A stretch of DNA of 64,000 bases from an uncultured Gemmatimonadales bacterium (GCA_963812035.1 CAWETG010000001.1:654987-718986), one strand, 5' to 3'; numbered from the stretch's first letter, positions 4,239 to 62,709 are shown. Numbers and translations are program-made. The notes: generated from the sequence alone by a model not told the origin.

Positions 4239-4246
4239 GGTCGCGC

Positions 4247-7914: not shown

Positions 7915-8994
7915 ATGCGACTGGTTCGCCGATCGACCGTTCTGGGCGCGCTCGCGCTCCAAGCCCTCGCAGGAGTTCCGAGCCGCGCAGGTGCTCGACA
8001 ACGCCCCGATGTCGTGCGGGGCGTCGTGCGGTCCAGCGGCGTGAGAATCCCCTACGCCGTCGTCGAGCTTGGCGCCCCGCGTGGCAAACAGTTCACCGAT
8101 GACAGCGGCGCTTTCCTCTTTGCCGGCATCCCATCCGGCCCCTACCGGCTGAGGGTGCGCCAGGTCGGCTTCCGACCCTTCGACTCCACGGTGGTGAAGA
8201 TCGAGGGAACGCCGCTCGTGGTTGCGGTCGACATGGAACCGCTGGTAGTCGAGCTCGCGGCCATCAACGTCGCCGTGCCACGAACCTGTGCGACGCCAGG
8301 CCGCCCGGACTCGGGGCTCGTACCCGAGCTGGCCGCCGTGTTCGATCAGCTGCGCCAGAACGCGGAGCGATACGCATTCCTGTCCGACTCATACCCATTC
8401 CACTACCGCCTGTCGCGAACTTTCGCGGCGTACGATCAGCAGGGCAAGATCGTCTGGTCCTCGACCGACACGGTTCGCTACCTCAGCAGCGCCCAGGTGC
8501 GTTACCGGCCCGGCCAGGTGCTGGCCCTTGGACTCGGCTCGGAGCACAGCCGCGCCAAGGTCATCCGGCTGCCCATGCTGTCGGACTTCGCCGACAGCGC
8601 GTTCCAGGCCCACCACTGCTTCTACTTCGCGGGGACGGTGCAGCGAGACACCAGCCGGTTAGTCCGGTTCGAGTTCGTCCCCGTCGATTCACTGCGCTTT
8701 CCCGATATCGAAGGGGAGGTGGACCTGGACGCACGCTCGTTCCAGATCCGGTACGCCACCGTCCGGCTCACCCGGGTCGGGCGAGCGATGCCGGGTCTGC
8801 TGTCGACCAGTTCGACAATCACCTACGGGGAGTTGTATCCGAACATTCTGGTGCCGATCAAGATGGAGGGTGAGCTCAAGCCGGAGCCGCGCCTCGACGT
8901 GCGCACGCCCATCGCTCGCTCGACGGAGACGCAGCAACTGCTGGACGTGCACTTCGAGCGTCCGCTCCCGGTGGCGGCTCCCGAGCACCGGTAA
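7915..8994 (+). CDS. carboxypeptidase-regulatory-like (CarboxypepD_reg) domain protein, secreted
   Basis: GGAGGG SD before ATG 7915, followed by a signal peptide. VRGVVRSSGVRIPYAVVEL...TDDSGAFLFAGIPSGPYRLRVRQVGFRP is typical of this beta-sandwich domain. Confidence 0.6.
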   Translation: MRLVRRSTVLGALALQALAGVPSRAGARQRPDVVRGVVRSSGVRIPYAVVELGAPRGKQFTDDSGAFLFAGIPSGPYRLRVRQVGFRPFDSTVVKIEGTPLVVAVDMEPLVVELAAINVAVPRTCATPGRPDSGLVPELAAVFDQLRQNAERYAFLSDSYPFHYRLSRTFAAYDQQGKIVWSSTDTVRYLSSAQVRYRPGQVLALGLGSEHSRAKVIRLPMLSDFADSAFQAHHCFYFAGTVQRDTSRLVRFEFVPVDSLRFPDIEGEVDLDARSFQIRYATVRLTRVGRAMPGLLSTSSTITYGELYPNILVPIKMEGELKPEPRLDVRTPIARSTETQQLLDVHFERPLPVAAPEHR

Positions 8995-9081
8995 ACGCAC
9001 GCGCTGGGGGTGGGAGGACGTGGCGCCCGATTGCGGTGGAGGTCTCCCGGCACCACGTTATGCATTCCACCAGAGGAACCC

Positions 9082-30512: not shown

Positions 30513-30542
30513 TTGGCACGTCACGCCGCCGTGGTGTACAAT
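30513..30542 (+). promoter_or_regulatory. candidate sigma-70 promoter of the formate dehydrogenase gene
   Basis: TTGGCA (30513-30518), 18-nt spacer, TACAAT (30537-30542). It ends 25 nt before ATG 30567. Confidence 0.45.
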
Positions 30543-30566
30543 GACGTCGACCCTTCAGACACGCCG

Positions 30567-41337: not shown

Positions 41338-42624
41338 GTGGCCCTGGCCTTCCGCCGCAGCATTTTCGTCTGGCTCGTCGTGGTCGCGGCGATCCCCGCC
41401 GGCGTCGGCGTCGGGGTGACGCTGCTCGCCCCGCGGCTCGCGGTGCCGGTCGGCGGCGTCGCCGCCTGGGACCGGGCCGGCGCGACGTGGCGCAACGTCG
41501 ACAGCGCGCTCGCCCACCAGAATCTTCCGGCCGCTGCGCGCGCGGCACTGGCGCGCCACCGCGACGAGCTCAGCAACTCGGTGGGGCGCGCGCACCAAAG
41601 CCTGTTCATCCGCAACGCCGTGGCGGCCGCGCTCGGGGGAGTGGTCGCGGCCCTCGCCGCGCTCGTCGCCCTGGGCACCCTCCGCCTCGCCGGCCACCTG
41701 TCGCGTCAGTTGTCGCGTCCGATCGACGAGTTGATCGCCTGGACCGGGCGCCTGACGCGTGGCGAGCCGCTGCCGGACACGCCTCCGGCCAAGGGCGCGC
41801 CCGAGTTCGACGTGCTGCGCAACGCGTTCCGCACCATGGCCGCGGACCTGGCCGCGGCGCGCGCGCGCGACGTGGAGGCCGCGCAGCTCCGGGCCTTCCG
41901 CGACCTCGCCCGCCAGGTGGCCCACGAGCTCAAGAACCCGCTCACGCCGCTGCGCTTCGCCACGTCGCGCCTCACCCAGGAAGCGCGGCCCGACCAGCGC
42001 GAGCTGCTCGAGATCATCGACGGCGAGAGCGAGCGCATCGAGCAGATGGCGAGGGACTTCGCCACCCTGGGCCGGCTGCCCGAAGGACCGCCCGCGGCCG
42101 TCGACCTCGGTGAGCTAGTCGAGACCCTCGTCAAGGGCACTGTGCCTCCCGGCATCGCCGTGCGCATCGATCGGGCGCCGGACCTGCCGATGGTGAGTGC
42201 CCACTACGAGCCGCTGCGCCGGGCGCTGCACAATCTGGTGCTGAACGCATGCGACGCCTGCGAAGCGGCGGGCACGGGGGCACGGGGGCACGGGGGCACG
42301 GACGAGCCGGCGGGCACCGGGCCACGGGGGCACGGGGGCACGGAGGCGGCCACCGCGCCGGCGATCAACATCGCGCTCCGCGCAGTGGCCAACGGCGCCG
42401 CGCCCGCCGTGCAGGTCGTGATCGCGGACACGGGCGTCGGCATCCCGCCCGAGCAGCTGGGCCGGATCTTCGAGCCGTACTTCACCACCAAGGCGAAGGG
42501 AACCGGCCTGGGCCTGGCGCTGGTGCGCCAGACGATCCACGACCACGGGGGCTCGATCGGCGTGGCGAGCGAGCCGGGTCGCGGCACGACGTTCACCATC
42601 ACGCTGCCCTTGGCGCGCGCATGA
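41338..42624 (+). CDS. NtrY-like sensor histidine kinase (2 TM, HAMP, HisKA, HATPase)
   Basis: H-box [13 protein letters not shown]-box [11 protein letters not shown]-boxes DTGVGI and GTGLGLA. Start placed at GTG 41338 because ATG 41218 would overlap the divergent ligase start. Confidence 0.8.
42268..42343 (+). repeat. tandem GGGGCACG octamer tract, duplicated block, in frame inside the kinase gene
   Basis: gcgggcacgggggcacgggggcacgggggcacgg is followed after 8 nt by gcgggcaccgggccacgggggcacgggggcacgg. The tract encodes [25 protein letters not shown] between the N-box and G1-box. Confidence 0.85.
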
Positions 42625-43997
42625 CGCGGCACCCGCTCGTGCTCGTGGTCGACGACGAGGCCAACCTGCGCCGGATGCTGGGCGCGGTGCTCGCGGCCGA
42701 CGGCTACCGCACCGCCGAGGCGGCGTCGGGCACCGAGGCCATCGCCGCCGCCGGGCGCCGCCGGCCCGACGCCGTGTTCCTCGACCTGTCGATGCCGGGC
42801 GGCCCCGACGGGCTCGAGACGCTCGAGCGCCTCAGCGCCGAAGCGCCCGGCGTTCCGGTGATCATGATGAGCGGGCGCGCAGGGCTCTCCGACGCCGTGC
42901 GCGCCACCAAGCTCGGCGCCTACCACTTCCTCGAGAAGCCGCTGGCCCCGGAGGCGGTGCTGCTCACCCTGCACTCGGCGCTCGAGTTGGCGCGCGCCCG
43001 TGCCGAGGCGTCGGCGCTGCGCGAAGTGCTCGGCCCCACCGCCACCCTCGTGGGCTCCAGCCCGCAGATGGCCGAGCTGCGGTCGTTGATCGCCCGGGTC
43101 GCAGCCACCGAAGCACGGGTCCTCGTTTCCGGAGAGTCCGGCACCGGGAAGGAGCTGGTGGCCGGCGCGATTCACGCGGCGAGCCAGCGCGCCGACGGGC
43201 CGTTCGTCCGCGTCAACTGCGCGGCGATCCCGCGCGAGCTCGTGGAGTCGGAGATGTTCGGCCACGAGCGCGGCTCTTTCACCGGCGCGACGGAACGGCG
43301 CGCCGGGCGCTTCGAGCAGGCCGACGGCGGCACGCTGTTCCTCGACGAGGTGGGCGATCTGTCGTCCGAGGCCCAGGCCAAGTTGCTGCGCGCGCTCGAG
43401 GGCGGCGAAGTGGAGCGGGTCGGCGGCGACCGCCCGATCCCAGTCGACGTGCGCGTCGTCTCCGCGACGAACAAGGACCTGGAGCGCGCCGCGCGGGACG
43501 GCCGCTTCCGCGACGACCTGCTCTACCGGCTCAACGTCTTCCCGATCGCCATCCCGCCCCTGCGGGAGCGGCCCGGCGACATCCCGGAGCTGGTGAGCCA
43601 CTTCGCCACTTTGGTCACGCAGCGCATCGGCCGGCCCGCGGTGACCGTGACGGACGAAGCCATGGACGTGCTGGTGCGCCATCCGTGGCCAGGGAACGTG
43701 CGGGAGCTGGCCAACATCGTCGAGCGGCTGATCATCCTCTCGCCACGCTCGTCGATCGGCGCCGACGACGTGGCGGCCGCCCTTCCTGCCGGCGAGGGCC
43801 GGGAGGAGCGGCTCCCCAACCCCGCCGCGATGACGCTGTCGCTGAGCGATGAACTCGACCGCTTCGAGCGGGTGCTGATCGCGCGGGCGCTCTCCGCCGC
43901 CGGCGGCAGCGTGGCGGAAGCCGCGCGCCGCCTCTCGACGGACCGGGCCAACCTCTATCGGAGAATGAAGCGGCTGGGCATCGAGCAGCCGTCGTGA
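42621..43997 (+). CDS. NtrX/NtrC-like response regulator (REC + AAA+ + Fis-type HTH)
   Basis: ATGA overlap with the kinase. DAVFLDLSMPG, Walker A GESGTGKE, a GSFTGA variant of GAFTGA, and C-terminal AARRLSTDRANLYRRMKRLGI. Confidence 0.85.
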   Translation: MTRHPLVLVVDDEANLRRMLGAVLAADGYRTAEAASGTEAIAAAGRRRPDAVFLDLSMPGGPDGLETLERLSAEAPGVPVIMMSGRAGLSDAVRATKLGAYHFLEKPLAPEAVLLTLHSALELARARAEASALREVLGPTATLVGSSPQMAELRSLIARVAATEARVLVSGESGTGKELVAGAIHAASQRADGPFVRVNCAAIPRELVESEMFGHERGSFTGATERRAGRFEQADGGTLFLDEVGDLSSEAQAKLLRALEGGEVERVGGDRPIPVDVRVVSATNKDLERAARDGRFRDDLLYRLNVFPIAIPPLRERPGDIPELVSHFATLVTQRIGRPAVTVTDEAMDVLVRHPWPGNVRELANIVERLIILSPRSSIGADDVAAALPAGEGREERLPNPAAMTLSLSDELDRFERVLIARALSAAGGSVAEAARRLSTDRANLYRRMKRLGIEQPS

Positions 43998-49003: not shown

Positions 49004-49019
49004 TGGCACAGGCTGTGCG
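49004..49019 (+). promoter_or_regulatory. sigma-54 (-24/-12) promoter candidate upstream of the first multihaem cytochrome
   Basis: TGGCACaggctGTGCg versus the consensus TGGCAC-N5-TTGC. GG-N10-GC spacing is exact, with one mismatch in the -12 box. It lies 80 nt before ATG 49099. Confidence 0.6.
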
Positions 49020-49098: not shown

Positions 49099-50580
49099 AT
49101 GGATCATCCCATCCAGGTCCGACATCTGCTGGTTGCTTCGGCGTTCGCGGTGCTGGCGACGGCATGCGTGAAGGACAACAATACGACCACGTCGCCGACA
49201 GGGGGCAGCAACCTCACCGCTGCGTTCGTCGGGTACAGCAACCCCACCACGAAGCAGACGACCTGCGGCAACTGCCACGTGTTGAAGCAGGAGACCTGGA
49301 TCCAGACCGGCCACTCTCACGCGTGGGCCGACCTGCAGGCGAGCGGGCACGCGGATACGACTTGCAGCCGGTGCCACTCGACGAATGGCACGAGCAACAC
49401 CGCCCCCGACACCGCCGGCTTCTTCAGCGCTTCGGCGGCGTCGCAGAAGTACTTCGTGGACGTCCAGTGCGAGGCCTGCCACGGTCCCGGGGCGCTGCAC
49501 GTGACGGTGCCTGACCAGACCGGCACGCAGCCAATCCCGTACTTCGTTTCCAAGGACACGACGCTCGGTGTCGGCTGCGGTATGTGCCACTACGGTGCGC
49601 CACACAACCCGTTCTATGAGGACTGGTCGCGCGGGGCCCACGGCATTCTGGAAGCCCCCGCCATCAGCAATGGCGGAACGTGCCTGCAGTGCCACGAGGG
49701 CAAGACGACGATGGAGCGGTTCGGCGGGAGCACCGTGTTCGTCGAGGCCGGCAACGCGACCGCCTACCCGATCGGGTGCACGACCTGCCACGCCCCGCAC
49801 GGCTCCACCAATACCCACGAGCTGCGCGAGTCCATCACCGTCCTCGACACGACGAACCTGTGCATCCAGTGTCACCATCGGAATGCGAATCCCGCCCTCT
49901 CGAACACCCGAGGACCGCACTCGCCGCAGGGGCCGACGTTCCTCGGCACCTCGGGGTGGCGGCCGGTGGGCTTCACCTGGGATTCGACCAACATGACGAC
50001 GCACTCGAACCCCGCTGCCAATCCACTCCTGTGCGCGACCTGTCACGTGGACACGCTCGACGTCAACAACAGCGCCGGCACCCTCGCGTGGCACTACACC
50101 GGGCACAGCTTTTACGCCATCCCCTGCGTGGATACCGCGGGGATCGACTCCACGAATTCGTGCGACGTCTCCGTGCGCAGCTTCGCGGCCTGCACCGCGA
50201 GCGGCTGCCACTCATCCCAAGCCGTGGTGCGGACTGACTTCCAGGCGCTGGGCGCGGAGCTGGCGTACTTCACCGGCGTCCTGTGGACCGACGTCAACGG
50301 CAACGGCAAGATCGACGCGGGCGACACGGGTCTCCTGACCCAGGTCCCGTCCACTGAATTCACGAATACCACGACCATCACGGTGGCGATGGGGGCGCTC
50401 TTCAACGTGCAGTTGGTGAGCGTGGACCAGTCGCACGGCGTGCACAATCCTCCGTACCTGCGGGCGCTGCTGGTCGCGACGATCCAGGCCGTCGAGCAGC
50501 AGTACAACCTGACACCGTCGCCGGCGGTGGACGCACGCGTCCATCAGTTGGCCGCCCAACTCGGCGTGCGCATCCGCTGA
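49099..50580 (+). CDS. multihaem c-type cytochrome, probable lipoprotein (8 CxxCH + 1 CX4CH)
   Basis: Start at ATG 49099 (GAGGAAGGGG upstream). Signal ending LATAC. Haem motifs CGNCH, CSRCH, CEACH, CGMCH, CLQCH, CTTCH, CIQCH, CATCH and CTASGCH. Confidence 0.85.
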   Translation: MDHPIQVRHLLVASAFAVLATACVKDNNTTTSPTGGSNLTAAFVGYSNPTTKQTTCGNCHVLKQETWIQTGHSHAWADLQASGHADTTCSRCHSTNGTSNTAPDTAGFFSASAASQKYFVDVQCEACHGPGALHVTVPDQTGTQPIPYFVSKDTTLGVGCGMCHYGAPHNPFYEDWSRGAHGILEAPAISNGGTCLQCHEGKTTMERFGGSTVFVEAGNATAYPIGCTTCHAPHGSTNTHELRESITVLDTTNLCIQCHHRNANPALSNTRGPHSPQGPTFLGTSGWRPVGFTWDSTNMTTHSNPAANPLLCATCHVDTLDVNNSAGTLAWHYTGHSFYAIPCVDTAGIDSTNSCDVSVRSFAACTASGCHSSQAVVRTDFQALGAELAYFTGVLWTDVNGNGKIDAGDTGLLTQVPSTEFTNTTTITVAMGALFNVQLVSVDQSHGVHNPPYLRALLVATIQAVEQQYNLTPSPAVDARVHQLAAQLGVRIR

Positions 50581-50647
50581 GGCGCGCGCGAGACGGGTAG
50601 GGACCGGCGCAGCAGCCTTCGGCGCTCGACGCCCGGTGGAACGCAGC

Positions 50648-50677
50648 GGGTCGGTCCTCTCCGGACCGGCCCGTTTT
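50648..50677 (+). terminator. intrinsic terminator/attenuator between the first two cytochrome genes
   Basis: gggtcggtcc / tctcc / ggaccggccc (one mismatch), followed by gtttt. Confidence 0.5.
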
Positions 50678-50712
50678 GCGTCTCCGCTCGAACGGTGAGA
50701 GAATAGGTTGCC

Positions 50713-52368
50713 ATGACGCGATACTACGTCTGGGTCTTGGAGCGATGGGCTCACCTGAGGCGCGGGTGGCGCATCGCTTTGGTGGCGGGGTTCACGCTCG
50801 CCCTGGGGAGCGCGTCGGTCGCCGGCTACCGCCAGTGGCACTACATGCAGCACGACAACCACTTCTGCACGTCGTGCCACCTCATGGTGGACCCGTTCCA
50901 GCGATTCAGCCGCAGCGCGCACGCGAAGCTCGAGTGCCACAACTGTCACGAGGGGCGGCTCCCGGAGCAGCTGCACCAGCTCTGGCTCACCGCCGTCACG
51001 AACCCTACGACCATCGGCCGGCACGCCCGGGTCCCGAACGAGGTCTGTGCCAGGTGTCACGTCAGCGGCGATTCCACCAAGTGGAAGATCATCGCCGCCA
51101 CCGCAGGCCACCGGATTCACCTGGAGTCGAAGGACCCGAGGCTCAAGGGAATGCGGTGCGTGGAGTGTCACGGCGTGTCGCTGCACGAGTTCGCGCCGGT
51201 AGACCGCACGTGCGGGCAGGCCGGATGCCACGACCACAATACGATCCAGCTCGGCCAGATGGGGCGGCTCAGCGAGTTGCATTGCACCACCTGCCACAAC
51301 TTCCTGGCCGAGGCGCGGGCGTTTGCGGTGGACTCCCTCGGCAAGCCCCTGACGCCGGCCGCCGCCCAGTGCCTCGCCTGCCACGCGATGCAGGAGAAGA
51401 TGCAGGCGATGGACATCGGCCGGGACCCGCACAACGGGGTCTGCGGCGATTGCCACAATCCGCATACGCAGACCAAGCCCCAGGACGTCAATTGCACCAA
51501 CGCCGGCTGCCATGCCGGCTGGCAGCGGGTGAGCTTCCACAACGGCGTGCCACACCCCGAGCGCTGTACCACCTGCCACCAGCCGCACAGCTGGCGGGTG
51601 GAAGGTCAGAACTGCGTCCGCTGCCACGCCAACATCCCACGGGAGGCCCCAAGCCACGCGCGCCGCGTCTCGCTGTCTCCGCGGTCGCACCTGACGGCCC
51701 CGACGGCGGTCGCCGACTTCGCGTCGGCCGCAGCCGCGTGGCTGCCGGACGCCGCGAGCCAGAACCCTCAGGCCAGCGGGGCGCCGGCTCTCGGGACTCC
51801 GCCGCGCTTCTCCCACGGCGATCACCGGGGGCAGATGTGCTCGAGCTGCCACTCGAGCCGGGTGCGGCACGGCGAGCTGCTGGTGAAGTCCAGCGCCGAC
51901 TGCCAACGCTGCCACCACAGCGGCCCCGAGCGGGCGGAGTGCTCGACCTGCCACGATGTCGCGGCGCTCGGCAAGGCCACGCTGCAGACCGAGCAGACGT
52001 TCCCGGTGGCGGCGAAGCACGCCACCGAGACCCGGCGCCTCCCGTTTGAGCACGCGCGACACCAGGGCTTCCCGTGCACGCAGTGCCACACGAACCCGCT
52101 GTCCCGTGCGCCGGAGGGCGCGGCGTGCGCCGCGTGCCACGCGAGCCATCACACGGCCTCGGCCAACTGCGTCGCCTGTCACGCTGGCACCAGGCCGATC
52201 GCCTTCCACAAGGCCGCCGATCACCCGAACTGCACTTCCTGTCACGGTGCGCGCGCGGCGAACTTGCCTGCCACGCGCGAGATGTGCCTGATGTGTCACA
52301 GCGCCCAGGCGCGGCACGTTCCGGGCGTGGTGTGCGAGCAGTGCCACAAAGTCCTGGCCCGGAGCTGA
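50713..52368 (+). CDS. membrane-anchored NapC/NirT-like cytochrome fused to a long multihaem extension (18 CxxCH + 2 CX4CH)
   Basis: N-terminal TM segment WRIALVAGFTLALGSASVAGY, followed by HFCTSCHLM (NapC/NirT-type first haem). I counted 20 haem motifs in 551 aa. Confidence 0.85.
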   Translation: MTRYYVWVLERWAHLRRGWRIALVAGFTLALGSASVAGYRQWHYMQHDNHFCTSCHLMVDPFQRFSRSAHAKLECHNCHEGRLPEQLHQLWLTAVTNPTTIGRHARVPNEVCARCHVSGDSTKWKIIAATAGHRIHLESKDPRLKGMRCVECHGVSLHEFAPVDRTCGQAGCHDHNTIQLGQMGRLSELHCTTCHNFLAEARAFAVDSLGKPLTPAAAQCLACHAMQEKMQAMDIGRDPHNGVCGDCHNPHTQTKPQDVNCTNAGCHAGWQRVSFHNGVPHPERCTTCHQPHSWRVEGQNCVRCHANIPREAPSHARRVSLSPRSHLTAPTAVADFASAAAAWLPDAASQNPQASGAPALGTPPRFSHGDHRGQMCSSCHSSRVRHGELLVKSSADCQRCHHSGPERAECSTCHDVAALGKATLQTEQTFPVAAKHATETRRLPFEHARHQGFPCTQCHTNPLSRAPEGAACAACHASHHTASANCVACHAGTRPIAFHKAADHPNCTSCHGARAANLPATREMCLMCHSAQARHVPGVVCEQCHKVLARS

Positions 52369-52370
52369 CG

Positions 52371-53768
52371 ATGCACTACCGCCTCCTCTCGACCTGTGCC
52401 CTGCTGCTCGGGCTCGCCGCGCCCGCAACGACACTACTTGCCCAGTCGGTGCGGCTGCACGGGACGACCACGACACAGTACATCCAACTGCGCCCCATCC
52501 AATACGATTCGTCAGCCGATTCGGGGGCCGGGGCCTACGTAGCGCTGCCGGTCGCGTACGCGGCGCCCTTCACCCAGGACCTGGAGCTGTCGGCGTGGGG
52601 GCTCGGGATGACGGGCCTGCGCGCTTACGCCCTGGTACGCGGGCGCGCGGCGCTGGGCTCCGAGTTGATCTGGCCGCAGTCCGACATGCACTTCGAGGCC
52701 CTGGATGCGTACCTGGAGCTGGAGCGGCCGCAGTACCTGCTGCGCCTCGGACGGCAGCAGCACTCGTCGGGGCTCGGATTCTACGGGTTCGATGGGCTGA
52801 CGGCCTTGTGGCGCCCGCTGGCCGCGCTGCACGTCGAGGGCTACGGCGGACGCGGCCTGGCGCGCGCCTCGGACGAGTCGTACAACAGCTCGGCCATCGC
52901 CTCGCTCGATCCGCTCCGCCCGGATCTGGGAACCATTCTGCTGGGGGCGTCGCTGTGGGCCGCCCCCACGGCGCGCTCGACTTTCTCGGCGATCTATCAA
53001 CGCGAGCTGCTGAGCGATGCCAGCGGCCTGGTGTCGGAGCGCGCCGCCTTCGACGGCCGCGTGGGGCTCGGCTCGCACCTGATCCTCTCGGCCTCGGCCG
53101 ACGCCGACATCGCGCGCGAGCAGTGGGGCAAGGCGAGCATCAGCGCGATGCTCCTCCTGCCGCGCGGCACCTCCCTCGAGATCGAAGCCTTCCAGTACCG
53201 GCCGACGCTCGATCTGTCGACCATCTGGGGGGTATTCACGCCGGAATCGCACTCCGGGTATTCGGCCACGGCCACCGTGGCGGCCGCCCGCGACCTGACG
53301 TTCTCCGGCGCCTTCACCTACCGGCACTGGCAGCCGCTCAGCTCCGGCTCGCCGTTCCTCGTGGACGTCGGCGACGACCAGAAGGAAGTTTCGCTCGGCG
53401 CGCACGCGCGCCGCGGAGTGTTCACCGTGGACGCCGGCTACCACCTGCAGCTCGGCTACGGCGGAGACCAGAGTGGCGGAGACCTCAGCGTCACCTACGC
53501 GATGCCGCGCGGGTGGCACCTCGGCGTCCAGACGACCGCGTTTCAGCAGACCGACATGTTCCGCGTCGCCGACGGCACCGTCTACGGGGTGGGGGGAAAC
53601 GTGAAGACCCCGCTCGGCCGGCGGCTGGGCCTGAGCGCTGAAGCCACGCGGTACTTCCACCGCCGCCTCACGGGCTCGACCAGCATCGACTGGAACCAGA
53701 CGCGGGCCTCGGTCAGCCTCGATTGGACCATCGGCGCCGACGCCGATCGCACCGGGAGCTATCGATGA
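52371..53768 (+). CDS. outer-membrane beta-barrel (porin-like) protein embedded between cytochrome genes
   Basis: ATG 2 nt after the upstream stop. Signal MHYRLLSTCALLLGLAAPATTLLAQ. No Cys-haem motifs. Alternating strand-like segments rich in Gly, Tyr and Ser (GYHLQLGYGGDQSGGDLSVTYAMP...). Confidence 0.65.
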   Translation: MHYRLLSTCALLLGLAAPATTLLAQSVRLHGTTTTQYIQLRPIQYDSSADSGAGAYVALPVAYAAPFTQDLELSAWGLGMTGLRAYALVRGRAALGSELIWPQSDMHFEALDAYLELERPQYLLRLGRQQHSSGLGFYGFDGLTALWRPLAALHVEGYGGRGLARASDESYNSSAIASLDPLRPDLGTILLGASLWAAPTARSTFSAIYQRELLSDASGLVSERAAFDGRVGLGSHLILSASADADIAREQWGKASISAMLLLPRGTSLEIEAFQYRPTLDLSTIWGVFTPESHSGYSATATVAAARDLTFSGAFTYRHWQPLSSGSPFLVDVGDDQKEVSLGAHARRGVFTVDAGYHLQLGYGGDQSGGDLSVTYAMPRGWHLGVQTTAFQQTDMFRVADGTVYGVGGNVKTPLGRRLGLSAEATRYFHRRLTGSTSIDWNQTRASVSLDWTIGADADRTGSYR

Positions 53769-55204
53769 TCGCCCGCGCGCTCACGGCCCTGCTCGCGCTG
53801 GTGGCCGCGCTGACCGGCACGCCGGCCCGTCACCGGGCGGGGCCTGCCCTCGCGGGCCAGGTGGCCACCGACACCTTCCCGCACGCACGCCACGCGAACC
53901 TGTTCACGACCTGCGCGTCGTGCCACGCCGGGATCTCGACCGGCGACACCGCCGCGCTGTGGCCGTCGCCGGAGCTGTGCGCCGGCTGTCACAACGGCGA
54001 TCTGGCGCGCCAGGTGAACTGGACGCCACGGCCACCGCGGGTCACCAATCTCAGCTTCGACCACGTGCCCCACGTCGCGATGTTCGAGTCGATGGACAGC
54101 GGAGGCGCCACCTGCCAGCGCTGCCATGCGCCGGCGGACTCCCTTCCCTTCATGGAGGTCGGCCGCGCGTCGCCGGAGCGGTGCGTGGGCTGCCACGGCC
54201 AGGGCGCGACGAGCCACCTGACGCAGACCAGCTGCGAGCCGTGCCACACCACGCTCCACGACGCCGCCGCGCTCGACACGGCGGCGATCCACGCGTTCCC
54301 CAGGCCCCCGTCGCACGACTCCGACTGGGTCCTGCACCACCAGAGCGCCGCCGCCGGCACGACCTGCGCGGTGTGCCACGCGCAGCCGTTCTGCGCCTCG
54401 TGCCACGTCAACGCGCGGATGGTGCAGGCCATCGAGAGCCTTCCGCCGGACGACCGCGTGGCCGCGATGGTGCGGGGACGGCAGGTCGCCTACCCGCGCC
54501 CGCCGTCCCACCTGGCGGCGGACTGGGACCGCGCTCACGGCGCCGTCGCCAAAGCCGGCGTGGCGGAGTGCGCCAACTGCCACGCCCAGGAGTCGTGCCT
54601 CGGCTGCCATCGCATCCAGGAGCGTGTGCCCGCGATCGCGGCGCTGCCGCGCCGCACCGCCGGCGCCGCGCCTGGCGTCAACCTCGCGGGCTTGAGGCCT
54701 GCCACCCATCTGCCCGACATGCAGCTGCGGCATCGCACGCTCGCTGCCGGCGGCGCCACGACCTGCAGCACGTGCCACCGGCCCTCGTACTGCGCGAGCT
54801 GCCACGACGCGGCCAAGGCGCCGAGCTTCCACGGCGCCAACTTCGTCCAGCGGCATGCGCAGCAGGCCTACGCCGCCGAGGCGGAGTGCACGGCCTGCCA
54901 CCAGACTCAGATCTTCTGCCGCGACTGTCACCAGAGGCTGGGGCGGGCCAACACCAACGCGCCGCTCGGCGGCGGCAGCTACCACGACAAGCAGCCCGGC
55001 TGGTTGTTCGGCCACGGCGGCGTGGCGCGCCGCTCCATCGAGACCTGCGCCAGCTGCCACGCCCAGGACTTCTGCGTGCGCTGCCACTCGGCGACGAGCG
55101 GCTGGCACATCAACCCGCACGGAGCCGGTTTCAACCCGAGCGTCGAGAGCAAGAACCCGGCGATGTGCCTCATCTGCCACACGACCGGCGTGCCCACCCA
55201 CTGA
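53765..55204 (+). CDS. 16-haem c-type cytochrome, secreted, with doubled-CxxCH pattern
   Basis: ATGA overlap with the barrel gene, then a signal peptide. 16 CxxCH motifs, many in close pairs (CAVCHAQPFCASCH, CANCHAQESCLGCH, CSTCHRPSYCASCH, CTACHQTQIFCRDCH, CASCHAQDFCVRCH). Confidence 0.85.
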   Translation: MIARALTALLALVAALTGTPARHRAGPALAGQVATDTFPHARHANLFTTCASCHAGISTGDTAALWPSPELCAGCHNGDLARQVNWTPRPPRVTNLSFDHVPHVAMFESMDSGGATCQRCHAPADSLPFMEVGRASPERCVGCHGQGATSHLTQTSCEPCHTTLHDAAALDTAAIHAFPRPPSHDSDWVLHHQSAAAGTTCAVCHAQPFCASCHVNARMVQAIESLPPDDRVAAMVRGRQVAYPRPPSHLAADWDRAHGAVAKAGVAECANCHAQESCLGCHRIQERVPAIAALPRRTAGAAPGVNLAGLRPATHLPDMQLRHRTLAAGGATTCSTCHRPSYCASCHDAAKAPSFHGANFVQRHAQQAYAAEAECTACHQTQIFCRDCHQRLGRANTNAPLGGGSYHDKQPGWLFGHGGVARRSIETCASCHAQDFCVRCHSATSGWHINPHGAGFNPSVESKNPAMCLICHTTGVPTH

Positions 55205-55236
55205 GGCGGGCGGCCGGCGCCGGTCACCGAAACGCC

Positions 55237-55267
55237 AGGAGGCCAGCCGGGCGTCGGCTGGCCTCCT
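55237..55267. terminator. hairpin between the convergent cytochrome operons (possible bidirectional terminator)
   Basis: aggaggccagcc / gggcgtc / ggctggcctcct gives a 12-bp perfect stem. No strong U-tract on either side. Confidence 0.45.
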
Positions 55268-55294
55268 CGTCATGCGGCGGTTGACCGGCGGGCC

Positions 55295-56554
55295 CTACCT
55301 TGGCGCGGCCCCGGGCGCGAGGAACCGCTCCCGCCGCCGACGCGCCTGGGCGTGGGCGGCCCAGCCAACAGCCACTGGCGCAATCACCGCGATGACCCAG
55401 AGCACCGGCACCGAGAGGCCCAGCTCTGCGCCGAAACCCGCCAGCGACAGCGCGAGGAAGAGCGTGATGGTGGCGAGCCCGAGGGCGAGCCGCAGCGGGC
55501 TCTCCAACGGGGGCTCCGTGTAGTAGAGCGACGACGGCCCCCGATCGAGCCACGGCACCAGCACGATCACCAGGGAGAGAATCCCGGGCACGAGCATCGC
55601 GCCGAAGACCTCCGACCCGATCGTCGCACCGAACAGCTTAAAGCTGAGCCCCCCGGGGATCAGGCGCAGCGCACCGTACACCCACAGCAGGTACCAGTCG
55701 GGTTTCACCTCCGGCGTCACCGGCTGCGGCGGCCCATAGAAGGCGGAGGGGTGCACCGGGAGGAACGCCGCCAGGGCCGCCAGCACGCCCAGCAGCACCA
55801 GGAACAGCACCCCCATCAGCGCGACCTGCTCCGGCCAGAGCGGAATCCCGCGGATGTAGGCACCCTCGGCCGCGTCGGGCCGGACCCCGGCGCGCCGCAT
55901 CTCGGTGTGCTTCTGCTTGAGCACGATGACGAGGTGCAGGGCGATCAGCCCGCTCAATGCCAGCGGCGCCCACACCACGTGGTAGGCGAAGAACCGCGGC
56001 ACGGTGGCGCTCGACGGGAACTGCCCGGCGAACACGAGATCCGCGAGGGTGGAGCCGACCCACGGCACCGAGCGCGCGATGCCGTACCCGATGGCGGTCG
56101 CCGTCACGGAGAACTGATCGAAGGGGAGCAGGTAGCCGGCGAACGACGCGCCGAGCGTGGCGCCGAGCAGCCCCAGGCCGAGCACCCAGTTCACCTCGCG
56201 CGGCTTGCGGTACGAGGCGGTGAAATAGATCCGGAGGAGGTGCAGGAGGACGGCCGCGATCATCAGATGGGCCGCCCAGTGGTGAATCCGCCGCATCAAC
56301 GCCCCGAACGGGTGGCTGTCGATGAGCAGCGTGCTCGCGTACGCCGCAGGCGCGGCGCCGTGCCCCGAGAGGAGCTGCGCCGAAGGCTCGTAGAACAGGG
56401 CCAGGTAGAGCCCCGTCGCCACCAGGATCACGAAGCAGAAGAGCGCGATCTCGCCCAAGAAGAATGTCGAGTGGACCGGGAAGGGCTTGCCGAGGTACTT
56501 GGCGCGGAAGCGTTCGAGCGCGAGCCGCTCGTCGAGCCAGCGTGGCACGGTCAT
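55295..56554 (-). CDS. cytochrome b (bc/b6f-type, N- and C-terminal domains fused)
   Basis: 419 aa and polytopic. RRIHHWAAHLMIAAVLLHLLRIYF and later His-bearing helices are present. Confidence 0.85.
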   Translation of the reverse strand: MTVPRWLDERLALERFRAKYLGKPFPVHSTFFLGEIALFCFVILVATGLYLALFYEPSAQLLSGHGAAPAAYASTLLIDSHPFGALMRRIHHWAAHLMIAAVLLHLLRIYFTASYRKPREVNWVLGLGLLGATLGASFAGYLLPFDQFSVTATAIGYGIARSVPWVGSTLADLVFAGQFPSSATVPRFFAYHVVWAPLALSGLIALHLVIVLKQKHTEMRRAGVRPDAAEGAYIRGIPLWPEQVALMGVLFLVLLGVLAALAAFLPVHPSAFYGPPQPVTPEVKPDWYLLWVYGALRLIPGGLSFKLFGATIGSEVFGAMLVPGILSLVIVLVPWLDRGPSSLYYTEPPLESPLRLALGLATITLFLALSLAGFGAELGLSVPVLWVIAVIAPVAVGWAAHAQARRRRERFLAPGAAPR

Positions 56555-56567
56555 CCGCGGGCCCCCC

Positions 56568-57140
56568 CTACGCCTTGACGCCGATCGGCGCGCTGAACGG
56601 CCCGGCGACGATCACCTCACCCTTGGCGTTCAACTTGACCGGCAGCTGCGGCAGCGGCCGCGGCGCGGGACCGCCCAGGACCGTGCACCCGTGCTGTGGG
56701 TCGAACATCGCGCCGTGGCACGGGCAATGGACATGCGGGAAGGGGGCCTGTTCCATCGGCTCCTCGGAGAACCGCACCGTACAACCCAGGTGCGTACAGA
56801 TCGCGCTGTAGGCCACGATGCCGTGGGCGGTGCCGGCGATGTCGGTCGGCGGCTGGACCTGCGCCGGATCGAGCTTGCAGACCATCGCCAGGTTCTCGTG
56901 GTTGTCGGACTTCCCCTCGGGATATGCGAGCACCGCTTCGTTCTGGGTGAAGCTCCCCTCCGTGATCGCCTCGCCCGCGTTGCCCCCCAGGGCGAAGACC
57001 AGCCGGTCCCCGGCCTCGACCCCGCGCGTGGCCGACGTGCGGGAGCGCCCCCGCAAGGTGATCACGCCCGGCAGGAGCGCCGCGATGGCGGCGACGATGC
57101 CCGTCTTCAGCGACCAGTTCGCGAAGCGTCGGCGATCCAC
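56568..57140 (-). CDS. Rieske 2Fe-2S subunit
   Basis: Twin-arginine signal MDRRRFANW. Cluster boxes CTHLGCTV and CPCHGAMF. GGGAGG SD upstream. Confidence 0.9.
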   Translation of the reverse strand: MDRRRFANWSLKTGIVAAIAALLPGVITLRGRSRTSATRGVEAGDRLVFALGGNAGEAITEGSFTQNEAVLAYPEGKSDNHENLAMVCKLDPAQVQPPTDIAGTAHGIVAYSAICTHLGCTVRFSEEPMEQAPFPHVHCPCHGAMFDPQHGCTVLGGPAPRPLPQLPVKLNAKGEVIVAGPFSAPIGVKA

Positions 57141-57153
57141 GCGTCCAACCTCC

Positions 57154-58159
57154 CTACCAGGGAATCCCGTCGTCGCGTTCCGTGCGGATGGACTCCCAGC
57201 GCACGAACGCGCGGCTGTACATCACGACGATGCCGGCCAGCGCGAGCAGCCCCACCGCCAGGCTCGACCCCAGCAGCCAGACCGGCTCCGCCCGCGCGAC
57301 GGCCACCGCGAAGGTCGCGAGGGACGCCACCTCCACCACCATGAAGACCGGGATCAGCGCCATCGCCACCCCCGTCCGCTCCGCGGAGGCGCCCTCGGCG
57401 GCGTGGGAGCCTTCGGCCCAACCCGCCACCACCCCATGCACGCCGACGATCAGGAGGACCGCCATCCACACGGTGATCATGATCTGGACGTCGGTGAGGT
57501 GATCCGGCAGCAGCGCCCCGCCCGCGGCCTCAGCCGGCGGCCCCGCGAACAGGTCGAGGAGCGCCACGGCCTTGTGCCCCCCGGCGTGGTACGCGGTGAA
57601 GTCCTTCGCGTCGGCGGACGCCATGAGCACGCGCGTCTGGCCCGCCATGATCGGCTGGTCCGTGCTGTCGTGCGCGGCCAGCGGCCGCTCGAACTCGATC
57701 GTCGTGCCGGCCGCGGTCGTGAGCCCCGCCGAGCCGAGGATGTCGTCGTGGCCGCCCAGGGCCGTGTCGGCCACGTGCGACACCGGAGTATTCGCGTAGT
57801 CGTCCTCCACGTGGGCGCCGCGCGCGTCTACGTAGCCGATCACGATGTCGGCGCCAAACATCAGCGGCCCCGCGCCCCCGAACCCTATGGCAACCCAACC
57901 CGTGTTCGGGCGTCGAAATCGCGCCGATCAGGCGGTCGCCGACGATGCTCCACTCGAAGGCAAGCTGGCTCGCCGGATCCACCCACCGGAATTGGTACTC
58001 CCCGGGGGTGATGCGGCCGTCGAGCTGGTGGGTGGCGTGGCCGGGCCGCGCCAGCGCGAGCAGCCGCTGCGGAAGCCGGAGCGTGAAGGCGAGGAGCAGC
58101 GCGAGCACCACGCCCGCGCCCAGCGCCACCAGCGGGAGGCGATCCCGGCCTGGCGTCAC
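57154..58159 (-). pseudogene. DOMON-domain membrane protein interrupted by a single-base frameshift (or a sequencing indel)
   Basis: GTG 58159 (GAGGAGGGG upstream, GTGA overlap with the upstream stop) opens ...ITPGEYQFRWVDPASQLAFEWSIVGDRLIGAISTPEHG. The frame then breaks at gggttgggttgcc (about 57897). Dropping one T restores ...HGWVAIGFGGAGPLMFGADIVIGYVD, which continues into ORF 57154..57861 with 3 C-terminal TM helices. The length of 1006 nt is not a multiple of 3. Confidence 0.7.
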
Positions 58160-58941
58160 TCGCCCCTCCTCGGATTGCGCGGCACCGCGCCGATGCCGCT
58201 CTCGCGCGGGGCCGGGTGCCCAAGAGCCTGCCAGGCCTCCACGAGGGCCTGCCTCGCTTCCCCAAGTCGCGCCGCCGCCGAGTCGAGGCGGAAGCTGTGC
58301 CAGACCTCGGCCGCCGCGCTCAGATGCCGCTCGGCATCCCCGAGCAGGATGGTGGCGCGCGCGCCGGCACGGGTGCCGCGCCGCCCCGCGGCGTCGGTCG
58401 AGACGACGTCGAAGAGAATGTTCTCGGTTCGGACCAGCGCCAGAACCCGGGAGGCCTCCCGCGCCTTCTCGGGCGGCGCGACCCCGCCCTCCACGTGGCA
58501 CGCCGAGCACGTCGTCAGCAGCCGCTCAGGGGTGAGGATCGACGTGGCCATCGAGCCGTGGCAAGTCACGCAGTTCGGGCCCCGGCCGTCGGACTCCAGC
58601 CGCGCGAAGTGCAGGCTCGTGCGGAAATACGCCGCTTCAGCGGCGTGGCACCGGCCGCAGGTGTCAGGGATGCGCGTGAAGAACACCGGGCTCGAAGGTT
58701 GACTCGACAACAGCACGCCCTGGTGTGCCGCGGCCGCGTTGGTGGCGGCGGGATTCCCTCCGTGACACGCCTCGCAGGTCACACCGGCCGCCGCGTGGGG
58801 GGACGCCTGCCATGCGGCGAAGCCGTGGCCCGCGCCGGAGGCCCCGCTCTGGCGGGCGTGGCAGGTCATGCATTCGCTGCGCGGCGGCCGCTGGCGAGCG
58901 TGGGCCGGCACCGCCGCGAGCGCCACGGCCAACGCTGCCAT
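58156..58941 (-). CDS. pentahaem c-type cytochrome
   Basis: CMTCH, CEACH, CGRCH, CVTCH and CSACH. Start placed at ATG 58941 (MAALAVALAAVPAHA). The longer ORF would overlap the upstream gene by 80 nt. Confidence 0.75.
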   Translation of the reverse strand: MAALAVALAAVPAHARQRPPRSECMTCHARQSGASGAGHGFAAWQASPHAAAGVTCEACHGGNPAATNAAAAHQGVLLSSQPSSPVFFTRIPDTCGRCHAAEAAYFRTSLHFARLESDGRGPNCVTCHGSMATSILTPERLLTTCSACHVEGGVAPPEKAREASRVLALVRTENILFDVVSTDAAGRRGTRAGARATILLGDAERHLSAAAEVWHSFRLDSAAARLGEARQALVEAWQALGHPAPRESGIGAVPRNPRRGE

Positions 58942-59002
58942 CGGCACCACACGCCAGCGGAGCAGCCCGCGCTCACGACCGACTTGACGACCGGGGCGCA
59001 GC

Positions 59003-59440
59003 TCAGCCACCGCCCGGGCCCGGAGCAGGTGCGGCCGCCACCTCGTGACACAGCTTGCACGTGGAGCCGTCGAAATTCGCATGCGACACGGGGGGCGACG
59101 GAGCGGCGCCCGGCACCGGGGCGGCGCCCGCTACCGCCTGCACGTGGCACTTCCGGCACTCCGCATGCACCTCGTCAGCGGCGTGCTTGATCGGGGTCGG
59201 CGTCTCCGCGATCGGCTTGTGGCACATCCCGCACGCGCCGTTGGCAAAGTGGTGCGTCGCCGGCACGCTGGTGATGTGCGCGTTGGCCCCGGCGCCGTGG
59301 CAGCTCAGACAGTCCTGCTTCCCTGCCGCCGGGTGCAGCATCCGCGGCGGCGTGTGCGGCGCCGCCTGCGCACGCAACGTGGACGCGCCCACCCAGGCCA
59401 CGAGGGCGGCGGACGCGAGCGCTGCACGTACCGCGCTCAT
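59003..59440 (-). CDS. tetrahaem c-type cytochrome
   Basis: Start at ATG 59440 with AGGAGG SD, then a signal peptide. CLSCH, CGMCH, CRKCH and CKLCH. Confidence 0.8.
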   Translation of the reverse strand: MSAVRAALASAALVAWVGASTLRAQAAPHTPPRMLHPAAGKQDCLSCHGAGANAHITSVPATHHFANGACGMCHKPIAETPTPIKHAADEVHAECRKCHVQAVAGAAPVPGAAPSPPVSHANFDGSTCKLCHEVAAAPAPGPGGG

Positions 59441-59492
59441 GCTCACCTCCTGCGCACAGCGCGCCGATGCCGGCCGCCGGCGGCTCGAGTCC

Positions 59493-59825
59493 CTAGTGTT
59501 TGCTGAACGTCCTGATGTAGCTGACGAGAGCGGCAATCTGCTCCGGCGTGAGCCGGCTCTTGTACGACGGCATCATACGACCCTTGCCGTTCATCACCGT
59601 CGCGCGCAGGACGCTGTCCGGCACCGATGCCAGCGTAGCCGCTACCCCGAAATCCGGCACACCCATCGAGGTCTTCATCGACGCAGTCGGCGTGCCTGCC
59701 GCGCCGTGGCACGAGGCACAAGTCTTCGCGAACAGCGTCGCTGCGCCGGCCGGCTGCTGGGCGCGCAGCGTCACCGCTGCAGCGAGTCCGAGCGCGACCG
59801 TCAGGAGAATTGCTTTCGTCGCCAT
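59493..59825 (-). CDS. monohaem class I cytochrome c
   Basis: GGAAGG SD and a signal peptide. CASCH plus a downstream Met (GKGRMMPSY). C-terminal LTPEQIAALVSYI is typical of c55x-type proteins. Confidence 0.85.
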   Translation of the reverse strand: MATKAILLTVALGLAAAVTLRAQQPAGAATLFAKTCASCHGAAGTPTASMKTSMGVPDFGVAATLASVPDSVLRATVMNGKGRMMPSYKSRLTPEQIAALVSYIRTFSKH

Positions 59826-60185
59826 GAAGCCTTCCGATCTCAGGAGTCCACTCGCCGCGGCGGAGTGCCGGCGGCACGAGCCACAACACGGACGAACGCC
59901 ACACCCGCAGGCCCTGGCCTCAGCTCATTGGCACACTGGCTCAGCGCCAAGCGCCGGGCTGCGGGGAGAGGAATCTATATGCCGCCTGTCGAAATGCCAT
60001 TTTCATCCTCAAAAAAAACCGACAGAATTCCGAATGATTGACTAGGAGACTTTGGCCGCTGGGCAACGAGCCCATTGGCCGAGCCTCGGTGCCGCAGGAT
60101 AACTACCTCCGGGAGGCCTCCAATTGGCCCCCAGGCAGCCCTTTGGTTGCTATCATGGCGCAACCTGACGAGCTTTCGGGACAGG

Positions 60186-61260
60186 ATGCCTCAGACCCTA
60201 TCCCAACCCGACCCCGCGCTCGTCGCTGCCATTCTCGACATGGCGGCCGACGCCATCATCTGCGTCGGCCCGGACGACCGCGTCCTCTCCTGCAACCGGG
60301 GGGCGGAGAAGATGCTCGGCTGGACCGCCCAGGAGTTGGTGGGCCAGCCGTTCGCGGTCCTGCTGCCGGAGGAGGAGCTGGCGCGCGGCGAGGTCGACTG
60401 GATGCGCCGCACGACGAACGCCCAGGGCGCGCTCCGCGACTACGAGACGCGGCGGAAGACCAAGGATGGCCACATCGTCGACGTGAGCATCACCCGGACG
60501 GTGGTGTACGACGAGTCCGGGAACCTCATCGGCTACTCGGCGATCCTGCGCGACATCTCCGACCGCAAGCGCATCGAGCGGCAACTGCTCACCGCCGAGC
60601 GGCTGGCCACGGCGGGCCAGGTGGCCGCGGGCGTCGCCCACGAAATCGGCGCGCCGCTCACCGCCATCTCGGTGGCGGTAGATCACATGCTCCAGTCCCG
60701 CTGCAACTTCTGCGGAGGCGGCGAGGAAATGCAGGTCCTGCTGTCGCAGACCGACCGCATCGCCAAGCTGGCCCGCCGCCTGGTGAACCTCGCCAAGCCG
60801 GCGGGGCTGGTGTTCACGCCGACCAGCGCCAACGAGACGGTGGAGCAGGCGACGAGCCTGGTGCAGCCGCAGCTCAGCCGGCACCGCATCCGACTCGAGC
60901 TCGATCTGGATCCGGAGCTTCCCGCCATTCACGCGGACGAGGCGCAGCTGCAGCAGGTGCTGATCAACCTGTTCCTCAACGCGCAGCGGGCGATGGCCGA
61001 CACAGGCGGCCTGCTGAAGGTCGCGACCGGCGCGAACGGAAGCGACATGGTCGAGATCATCGTCTCCGACAATGGTCCGGGCATCGCCGAAGCGGATCTC
61101 CCCCACATCTTCACGCCGTTCTTCTCGCGCTCCGGCGGCACCGGACTCGGCCTGGCACTCGCGGCACAGATTGTGAAATCGCACCGCGGGACCATCGACG
61201 TCGCCTCGCAGATTGGCCACGGCGCGACCTTCACCATCCGGATTCCCGCATCGGTGAGCC

Positions 61261-61268
<8 letters not shown>
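60186..61268 (+). CDS. cytoplasmic PAS-domain sensor histidine kinase
   Basis: Start moved to ATG 60186. PAS region (ILDMAADAIICVGPDDRVLSCNRGAEKMLGW...DGHIVDVSIT). H-box VAHEIGAPLTAI, N-box LFLNAQRAM, DNGPGI and GGTGLGLA. No TM segment. Confidence 0.85.

Positions 61269-62709
<1,441 letters not shown>

Follow-up and report, generated by a model that had tools for sequence, protein, structure and literature searches.

A Rieske/cytochrome b operon of Gemmatimonadales with a membrane-anchored DOMON protein and without a c1-type gene

Most respiratory and photosynthetic chains have a Rieske/cytochrome b complex as their central proton-motive quinol oxidase, and the electron exit from the Rieske cluster is the part that varies most between lineages. 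Variable third subunits are a known theme of these complexes. Here, we analysed a 64-kb window (64,000 nucleotides, ~70% G+C) from the metagenome-assembled genome of an uncultured soil bacterium of the order Gemmatimonadales (GCA_963812035.1 CAWETG010000001.1:654987-718986). Six genes on its minus strand, read from 59825 to 55295, encode a monohaem, a tetrahaem and a pentahaem cytochrome c, a protein with a DOMON domain and three transmembrane (TM) helices (DOMON/3-TM), a Rieske protein with a twin-arginine translocation (Tat) signal, and a cytochrome b. We think it reasonably probable that they specify a Rieske/cytochrome b complex that oxidises menaquinol and belongs to a lineage of its own, and that in this complex a haem-b DOMON relay replaces cytochrome c1, cytochrome f or QcrC and feeds lineage-specific acceptors. 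Coordinates are collected in Table 1, and related loci are referred to by number (L001 and so on).

The closest sampled cytochrome b proteins outside the family belong to haloarchaeal Nar clusters. In Haloferax mediterranei pHM300, the gene order is ORF1, Rieske, cytochrome b, a small ORF, narG, narH, an EBDH-like cytochrome b, and narJ. The cluster has no c-type cytochrome, and a periplasmic b-type cytochrome has been proposed as its electron exit, connecting NarBC to NarGH in a scheme that is bioinformatic only (PMC3509893). A further likeness is ORF1, which lies upstream of the Rieske gene and encodes a homolog of the DOMON protein's 3-TM module. Unlike the Gemmatimonadales protein, ORF1 is without a DOMON domain. 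The b-cytochrome of these clusters is an EB_dh-type protein in its own right, the acceptor is periplasmic NarGH, and the motif at the quinol-oxidising (Qo) site is PDWF.

The actinobacterial bcc complex (QcrCAB) supplies the best solved relatives of the cytochrome b, and the best NCBIfam models for both cytochrome b and Rieske. Structures of QcrCAB have been solved in Mycobacterium and Corynebacterium supercomplexes. The two systems share the PDWY motif and menaquinol chemistry, and the last DOMON helices and tail align with TM2 of QcrA and the “FIPEE..RHDG” segment that precedes its Tat motif. However, the scores of the operon proteins fall well short of the family cut-offs (cytochrome b, 282 against 500 bits; Rieske, 88 against 275 bits). 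The operon has no dihaem QcrC and has a DOMON domain and a pentahaem cytochrome, and its Rieske protein has one TM helix, not three, with two extra helices found on the DOMON protein.

Other comparisons are more distant. We take the Sulfolobus SoxLN-CbsAB complex, in which an outward-facing, membrane-anchored mono-haem b cytochrome (CbsA) is thought to replace c1, to be a functional analogy only. It is archaeal, and the NCBIfam SoxC and SoxL2 models gave weak matches only. In anammox Planctomycetes, a Rieske/cytochrome b core is associated with multihaem c cytochromes and not with c1. There the haem subunits are hexa- or octahaem and HAO-like, the cytochrome b is of a different lineage, and a DOMON/3-TM subunit is not known from these complexes. 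The DOMON subunit shares a beta-sandwich fold with the CDH and PDH cytochrome domains, CYBDOM/AIR12 and EBDH gamma (Foldseek E values 3e-4 to 7e-4), and, like CDH, has a putative ligand pair of Met and His ~91 residues apart, the ligand equivalence being read from sequence spacing only. Unlike those haem-b proteins, it is bacterial, fused to a 3-TM module and encoded in a bc operon, with 9–17% identity to them.

The operon and its Rieske/cytochrome b core

The evidence supports a single operon of the Rieske/cytochrome b type for the six genes, with no c1-type gene among them. The end of the pentahaem gene and the start of the DOMON gene share the letters GTGA, gaps of 13 nt separate the DOMON gene from the Rieske gene and the Rieske gene from the cytochrome b gene, and Shine-Dalgarno sites of the AGGAGG/GGAGG type precede the starts. 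Not one operon protein reached a c1, cytochrome f or QcrC model of Pfam or NCBIfam; the only partial QcrC match was that of the monohaem cytochrome, at 23 bits in NCBIfam. No Cytochrom_C1, cytochrome f or QcrC-type gene was found elsewhere in the 64-kb window, so the c1 or f third subunit of a canonical bc1 or b6f complex was found in neither place, and no terminal oxidase was found in the window. These results bear out the initial annotation of the locus with regard to gene order, strand, the outer coordinates 55295-59825, a single operon with ribosome-binding sites and tight distal junctions, and the lack of a c1-type gene. It had counted three multihaem cytochromes; there are two (tetrahaem and pentahaem) and one monohaem protein.

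Table 1. Position and strand of the features discussed in the text.
Feature	Position	Strand	Basis or remark
Monohaem class I cytochrome c, 110 aa	59493..59825	(-)	Signal peptide, one CASCH; Pfam Cytochrome_CBB3, Cytochrom_C
Tetrahaem cytochrome c, 145 aa	59003..59440	(-)	Signal peptide, four CXXCH; weak c7/c3 Pfam matches
Pentahaem cytochrome c	58156..59010	(-)	Five CXXCH, C-terminal three-helix bundle; probable start
DOMON/3-TM subunit, 334 aa intact	57154..58159	(-)	Pfam DOMON, Foldseek, TM scan, intact L001 copy
Extra A site (AA instead of A)	57905..57906	(-)	+1 shift of DOMON frame; alignment with L001
Rieske [2Fe-2S] protein, 190 aa	56568..57140	(-)	Tat signal MDRRRF, one TM anchor; Pfam Rieske
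Cytochrome b, unsplit, 419 aa	55295..56554	(-)	Pfam Cytochrom_B_N_2, Cytochrome_B, Cytochrom_B_C
GC-rich hairpin, 13-bp core stem	55205..55294	(.)	90-nt gap between convergent cytochrome b and 16-haem genes
Putative lipoprotein, 8-9 haems	49099-50580	(+)	Haem count
18-20-haem cytochrome, NrfH-like N-terminal membrane head	50713-52368	(+)	TIGR03153, E 8e-11
Putative outer-membrane protein, signal peptide, 465 aa	52371-53768	(+)	No family match
16-haem periplasmic cytochrome	53765-55204	(+)	Haem count
Upstream intergenic region	59826..60074	(-)	Common with divergent two-component system; neighbourhood's only AT-rich stretch
PAS histidine kinase	60075-61268	(+)	Divergent from operon; Pfam PAS, HATPase_c
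Sigma-54-dependent response regulator	61261-62709	(+)	Divergent; Pfam Response_reg, Sigma54_activat, HTH_8

Next, we compared the arrangement across Gemmatimonadales. The order pentahaem-DOMON-Rieske-cytochrome b is invariant across ~48 loci of this group. In 15 GTDB genomes, this core is present wherever the contig reaches, with two loci cut inside the DOMON gene. A metagenome sample yielded 33 full-length DOMON/3-TM loci, in which counts were limited to loci with room on the contig. Here the Rieske gene follows the DOMON/3-TM gene in all 31 countable cases and cytochrome b comes next in 26 of 26, and in both sets, wherever the contig leaves room upstream, the DOMON gene is preceded by the pentahaem gene. 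The control consisted of 43 loci, brought in by the same scan, with other DOMON proteins that have no 3-TM module; none had a Rieske or cytochrome b neighbour (0/43). The adjacency of DOMON/3-TM, Rieske and cytochrome b is far beyond chance. The fixed unit in Gemmatimonadales is four genes, not six, because the tetrahaem gene is found in about half of the related loci and the monohaem gene varies in position. An earlier count of ten c-haems for the operon therefore agrees with the number of CXXCH motifs, whereas the idea that all ten haems and the DOMON domain form one fixed exit does not hold, since only the pentahaem protein is constant within the group. That the DOMON protein is part of the complex, as had also been proposed, is upheld by its translational coupling, by the 13 nt to the Rieske gene, by its co-occurrence with the core in three phyla whose c cytochromes differ, and by the relationship of its membrane module to haloarchaeal ORF1 and, at borderline E values, to actinobacterial QcrA.

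The core itself is of the bc type. The Rieske protein carries the boxes CTHLGC and CPCHGAMF, the latter with the Ala/Phe pair of the low-potential type, as well as a Tat signal, and its gene ends 13 nt before the cytochrome b start. Its best NCBIfam model is bc1_QcrA_actin, under the cut-off as given above. It shares 39–48% identity with the Rieske proteins of other DOMON-type loci, and 29% with NarB of haloarchaea. In the cytochrome b, helices B and D supply the two His pairs that ligate haems bL and bH (helix D spacing 14 residues), and a Qo motif, PDWY, stands at residue 285. Its best PDB matches are actinobacterial QcrB (E value 1e-57), and its best NCBIfam model is QcrB_actin. Against cytochrome b proteins of a plasmid collection, identities were 41–46% for the haloarchaeal NarC type, 33–38% for Actinobacteria, 33–36% for Deinococcus, and 24–29% for Proteobacteria. 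A neighbour-joining tree of 16 sequences and 385 columns, with 200 bootstraps, placed the DOMON-linked cytochrome b proteins in one clade (100% bootstrap), with haloarchaeal NarC as sister (88%) and Actinobacteria next (100%), and the Rieske identities rank the lineages in the same way. A phylogeny of the core had been suggested as a check on the initial annotation, and the one run here for cytochrome b sets the DOMON-linked clade apart from both haloarchaeal NarC and actinobacterial QcrB.

PDWY is present in all DOMON-type cytochrome b proteins. Kao and Hunte associated PDWY with menaquinol and a low-potential Rieske cluster, and APWY with reverse operation (PMC4122944), and Ala/Phe in Rieske box II is a criterion for a low-potential cluster (PMC3509893). 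Together, the PDWY motif and the Ala/Phe box point to menaquinol as the likely substrate and to a low-potential cluster.

The DOMON/3-TM subunit and its relatives

The intact DOMON protein has a hydrophobic signal or anchor at its N-terminus, followed by a beta-sandwich and, towards the C-terminus, by three TM helices; its last residues, ...RDDGIPW, are invariant. It passes the Pfam gathering score for the DOMON domain (PF03351) with 48.7 bits against a threshold of 32.7; the truncated open reading frame of the window, which is shifted by one extra A, scores 27 bits alone. A Foldseek search with an AlphaFold2 (AF2) model of the protein indicates that the best match is the DBH DOMON domain, and the CDH and PDH cytochrome domains were also found (probability 1.00 for all of these). 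The EBDH gamma subunit was matched more weakly.

Three residues (M100, H191 and K196) are invariant in 32 Gemmatimonadales DOMON sequences. In distant members of the family, at 24–40% identity, the His of the YH motif and a second His (H123) are invariant, and the Met of the DOMON loop is nearly invariant family-wide, being displaced by one residue in one member. The DOMON protein of Hippea also has the Met and His motifs. M100 and H191 lie 91 residues apart, a CDH-like spacing; the haem ligand pair of CDH, which we take to be Met65/His163, is similarly spaced. By analogy, one b-type haem most likely sits in the DOMON domain, ligated by Met100 and His191 in the fashion of CDH. A b-haem had been suggested for this domain earlier, and the conserved Met and His fit that suggestion. 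A His in the first C-terminal helix is conserved within Gemmatimonadales and is not kept outside this group; therefore, no membrane haem is expected in the DOMON protein.

The 3-TM module is clearly homologous to ORF1 of the haloarchaeal Nar clusters. ORF1 (L025 7713-8288, 191 aa, annotated as “hypothetical”) was aligned with the module by hhalign at 94–95% probability and an E value of 4e-8. Because of this homology, ORF1 is probably a membrane subunit of the haloarchaeal Nar-linked bc module.

A second relationship, to actinobacterial QcrA, is positionally consistent but statistically borderline. The 3-TM profile was searched against all PDB sequences, and the top six matches were actinobacterial QcrA proteins (E values 0.003-0.85), all aligned at the same place, namely the second helix and the following “Y.KKFIPEE..VQ.RHDG” segment. 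Positions 31–97 of the NCBIfam model QcrA_actin were matched by 8 of 15 family members, and any other model by one member. The link rests on these PDB and NCBIfam profile matches, as the actinobacterial loci of the plasmid collection hold only orphan QcrB paralogues and no full QcrA sequences. In QcrA, the Tat motif and then the third helix come after the “RHDG” segment, and one study reportedly dealt with Sec/Tat dual insertion of such Rieske proteins. In our locus, the DOMON protein ends at the QcrA-like segment and the Tat motif opens the next gene. The two N-terminal helices of QcrA thus seem to have their counterpart in the two last DOMON helices and the cytoplasmic tail, and the DOMON and Rieske proteins together are likely a split QcrA. 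Such a correspondence would place the DOMON helices inside the complex beside the Rieske anchor, and the DOMON domain in the periplasm.

Two further candidates were examined and rejected. The haloarchaeal EBDH-like cytochrome b (Orf7) showed no sequence similarity to the DOMON profile, and an 82-aa protein encoded upstream of a Deinococcus Rieske gene showed none to the 3-TM module.

We then surveyed other phyla by a profile search of 1.8 billion representatives. The DOMON domain is widespread (2,098 matches), and the full-length DOMON/3-TM proteins ending in ...PW form a small family that includes distant members. In Bipolaricaulota, the DOMON/3-TM, Rieske and cytochrome b genes adjoin cupredoxins or NirS. 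They follow two cupredoxin genes in L020; L024 (Ca. Acetothermia) has the same three genes, and in L036 (Ca. Bipolaricaulia) they are followed by NirS, with no separate cytochrome c gene. In L022, a clade II nosZ...nosD/G/H/F/Y cluster is followed by DOMON/3-TM, Rieske, cytochrome b and a monohaem cytochrome c, an arrangement repeated in L033 of the cultured Hippea jasoniae. DOMON/3-TM and Rieske genes are followed by a probable cytochrome b at the contig end of L017. The distant locus L021 encodes two pentahaem-like cytochromes ahead of DOMON/3-TM, one of them with exactly the haem spacing of the window's pentahaem protein. The DOMON subunit thus accompanies related bc-type complexes in at least three bacterial phyla. 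DOMON, Rieske and cytochrome b are constant and the soluble partners are interchangeable, and this is our main argument for placing the DOMON protein, not a c-type cytochrome, at the c1 position. With the nos-linked genes, H. jasoniae, which is in culture, has a bc module devoted to N2O reduction. Papers that link a DOMON protein to Rieske/cytochrome b, nos clusters or Gemmatimonadota were not found in a full-text library drawn from PMC and bioRxiv, a search that leaves closed-access literature uncovered.

Some further details of these loci were noted. The clade II nosZ clusters of L033 (1-13317) and L022 (1-12316), with nosZ, nosD, Fe-S nosG/H-like and ABC nosF/Y genes, both end with the DOMON-type bc genes. 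In L036, the cd1 nitrite reductase comes directly after the DOMON-type bc genes (884-5385); an EB_dh-family (EBDH-gamma-like) protein is encoded at 8375-9181, and several Crp/Fnr regulators are close by. Cupredoxin-like proteins are encoded upstream of the Acetothermia-type operons at L020 7347-8368 and L024 2397-3596. The L020 pair carries a C-terminal CFQPGHYEAGQK motif, which suggests a type-1 copper site with Gln instead of Met as the axial ligand.

Soluble cytochromes and neighbouring genes

Among the three soluble cytochromes, the pentahaem protein is the constant one. Its start is probably GTG 59010, giving 284 aa, rather than ATG 58941 (261 aa) of the automatic gene call, because 284 aa agrees with the lengths of its homologs (mostly ~260–287 aa, many of them 270–287 aa). 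The 284-aa form carries an Arg-rich signal peptide. GTG 59010 overlaps the tetrahaem stop (GTGGCTGA, window 59003-59010), and the tetrahaem and pentahaem genes would therefore be translationally coupled. His62, His72, His96, His134, His238 and Met154 are invariant among the pentahaem homologs. The AF2 model is confident in the helical bundle only, with a predicted local distance difference test (pLDDT) score of 35–60 in the haem region, and the matches among PDB sequences are generic haem-motif matches only.

The tetrahaem and monohaem cytochromes are accessory. The monohaem protein shows weak NCBIfam matches to CcoP and c6, and 30% identity to the c-domain of a NirS. Its gene lies upstream in most related loci and downstream of cytochrome b in L010, L012 and L013.

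Facing the operon is a convergent cluster of four plus-strand genes (49099-55204) with ~42–45 c-haems in total. It looks like a self-contained porin-cytochrome conduit with a putative barrel, although the candidate porin of 465 aa gave no Pfam, NCBIfam or PDB match. The cluster adjoins the bc operon in most loci and is absent from L008, L011 and L071. The gap between the two units (55205-55294) folds as RNA with -63.4 kcal/mol (z = -5.9; 0 of 200 shuffles were as stable) and has a weak T tract only; this predicted hairpin is likely a bidirectional terminator. A sigma-54-like -24/-12 element, TGGCACAGGCTGTGCG, lies at 49004-49019 (+), ~80 nt upstream of the putative lipoprotein gene that opens the cluster; over the whole window, such matches are fewer than chance would give. 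Two sigma-54-dependent response regulators are encoded in the window, at 42249-43997 and 61261-62709.

On the other side, the region upstream of the operon (59826..60074) holds no sigma-70-like or sigma-54-like consensus. The kinase/regulator pair beyond it (60075..62709) is, judged by position only, a candidate for regulating the operon. At the corresponding position, pairs of a PAS kinase and a regulator of the GerE type flank the DOMON-type operons of L020 (5215-7297) and L024 (259-2219). The only further redox enzyme noticed in the window is a NuoG/FdhA-like molybdopterin oxidoreductase of 994 aa (30513-33497, plus strand), with an N-terminal 2Fe-2S domain and 4Fe-4S domains.

Electron exit, alternatives and meaning

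In the mechanism we propose, menaquinol would be oxidised at the Qo site, where its two electrons would part, one entering the bL/bH haem pair and the second reducing the low-potential Rieske cluster. The mobile Rieske head would then reduce the DOMON haem b. The nearest precedent is the haloarchaeal scheme described above, with its periplasmic b-cytochrome between NarBC and NarGH. From there, the electron would pass in Gemmatimonadales to the soluble pentahaem cytochrome and on through an optional tetrahaem protein and the monohaem cytochrome to a terminal enzyme. In other lineages, the acceptor would be a cupredoxin, NirS, or a monohaem cytochrome c feeding NosZ. The carrier order, the quinone species and the final acceptor in the source organism are what we infer here.

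Several points speak against this scheme. Many DOMON domains have no haem, and haem binding by this one is our inference; the AF2 model of the protein is only moderate (pLDDT 69). The similarity to QcrA is borderline (best E value 0.003) and spans ~40 residues, the cytochrome b tree is small (16 sequences, neighbour-joining), and the DOMON gene is frameshifted in the source assembly. Furthermore, multihaem cytochromes are often lower in potential than the Rieske cluster, and therefore a downhill order is not assured. In one alternative, DOMON/3-TM is a cofactor-free structural or docking subunit that does no more than position its partners, and the pentahaem protein (or NirS, a cupredoxin or a monohaem cytochrome c) takes the Rieske electrons directly and is the actual replacement for c1. 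DOMON domains are often haem-free modules that bind ligands or proteins, and the best Foldseek match, DBH DOMON, is one without haem. The pentahaem gene, which is translationally coupled to the DOMON gene and invariant in Gemmatimonadales, would also suit a docking role of DOMON, and the membrane module does occur without a DOMON domain in haloarchaeal ORF1 and, by the weak match, at the N-terminus of QcrA. However, Met and His are kept at a CDH-like spacing across lineages of 24–40% identity, and the haloarchaea, whose ORF1 has no DOMON domain, encode a separate b cytochrome of the EBDH-gamma type. The acceptors differ wholly among lineages while DOMON stays constant, which fits a common relay better than a dock for unrelated proteins. 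We consider a purely structural role rather unlikely.

The frameshift raises the further question of whether the complex is inactive in the source strain, the DOMON gene being a pseudogene. The public 1.2-Mb contig does include the extra A, and the annotated public record of the source genome has the DOMON protein only as a 235-aa fragment (P0070). Against this, an 18.7-kb contig (L001) from an independent Logan assembly, essentially the same genome, agrees with the window in 99.994% of 16,733 aligned bases, and the extra A at 57905/57906 is the sole difference; its DOMON gene is intact (334 aa), as are the homologs (~332–336 aa) in more than 120 cases. Both halves of the split gene retain full codon bias and sequence conservation, and doubling of an A is a typical long-read error. 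As the only difference over 16.7 kb, the extra A is probably an assembly error, most plausibly a long-read indel, rather than the mark of a pseudogene, and we regard an inactive complex as very improbable. A third possibility concerns the acceptor: the bc complex may be the inner-membrane end of an extracellular electron pathway with the facing cluster, which could serve as an energy-conserving outlet to Fe(III) or humics or could carry external electrons in reverse onto menaquinone. The 16-haem/porin-like/18-20-haem/8-9-haem cluster does neighbour the operon in most Gemmatimonadales loci, the source habitats of related loci include peat, fen and groundwater, and ten c-haems suggest a periplasmic wire. 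Nevertheless, the two units are separately transcribed, with the strong hairpin between them, and the three loci named above retain the bc operon without the cluster. The synteny may simply mirror close kinship of the genomes. Since the cluster has its own NrfH-like head of the quinol-dehydrogenase type, we treat it as independent of the bc complex. In other lineages, bc complexes of this type serve NirS and NosZ, and the Qo motif, PDWY, differs from the APWY that has been linked to reverse operation. The earlier remark that the operon points toward the facing porin-cytochrome genes thus comes down to convergent orientation; a functional link is possible but unsupported, and we judge the extracellular pathway unlikely.

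We therefore keep to a Rieske/cytochrome b complex with a haem-b DOMON relay. A bolder version holds that DOMON is a b-type cytochrome reduced directly by the Rieske protein, forming a third independent exit beside c1 and f, and that DOMON/3-TM-Rieske-cytochrome b is an old portable module of which the QcrA helices and ORF1 are remnants. This we offer tentatively, as a conjecture about which we are nearly evenly divided and lean slightly to doubt. If true, different phyla would have connected the module to outlets as varied as multihaem wires, cupredoxins, NirS and NosZ.

With a conserved DOMON subunit, the list of known exits from the Rieske cluster would grow by a b-haem or, at the minimum, by one more protein. 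Such a subunit would explain the extra helices of actinobacterial QcrA and the unnamed ORF1 of the haloarchaeal Nar clusters. It would also explain why some clade II nosZ and nirS clusters have a bc module of their own, a matter relevant to N2O and nitrite turnover. The idea is directly testable because the family is present in the cultured Hippea jasoniae. Gemmatimonadales are abundant in soils and peat, and their operon is a candidate for an energy-conserving route from menaquinol to a periplasmic haem wire.

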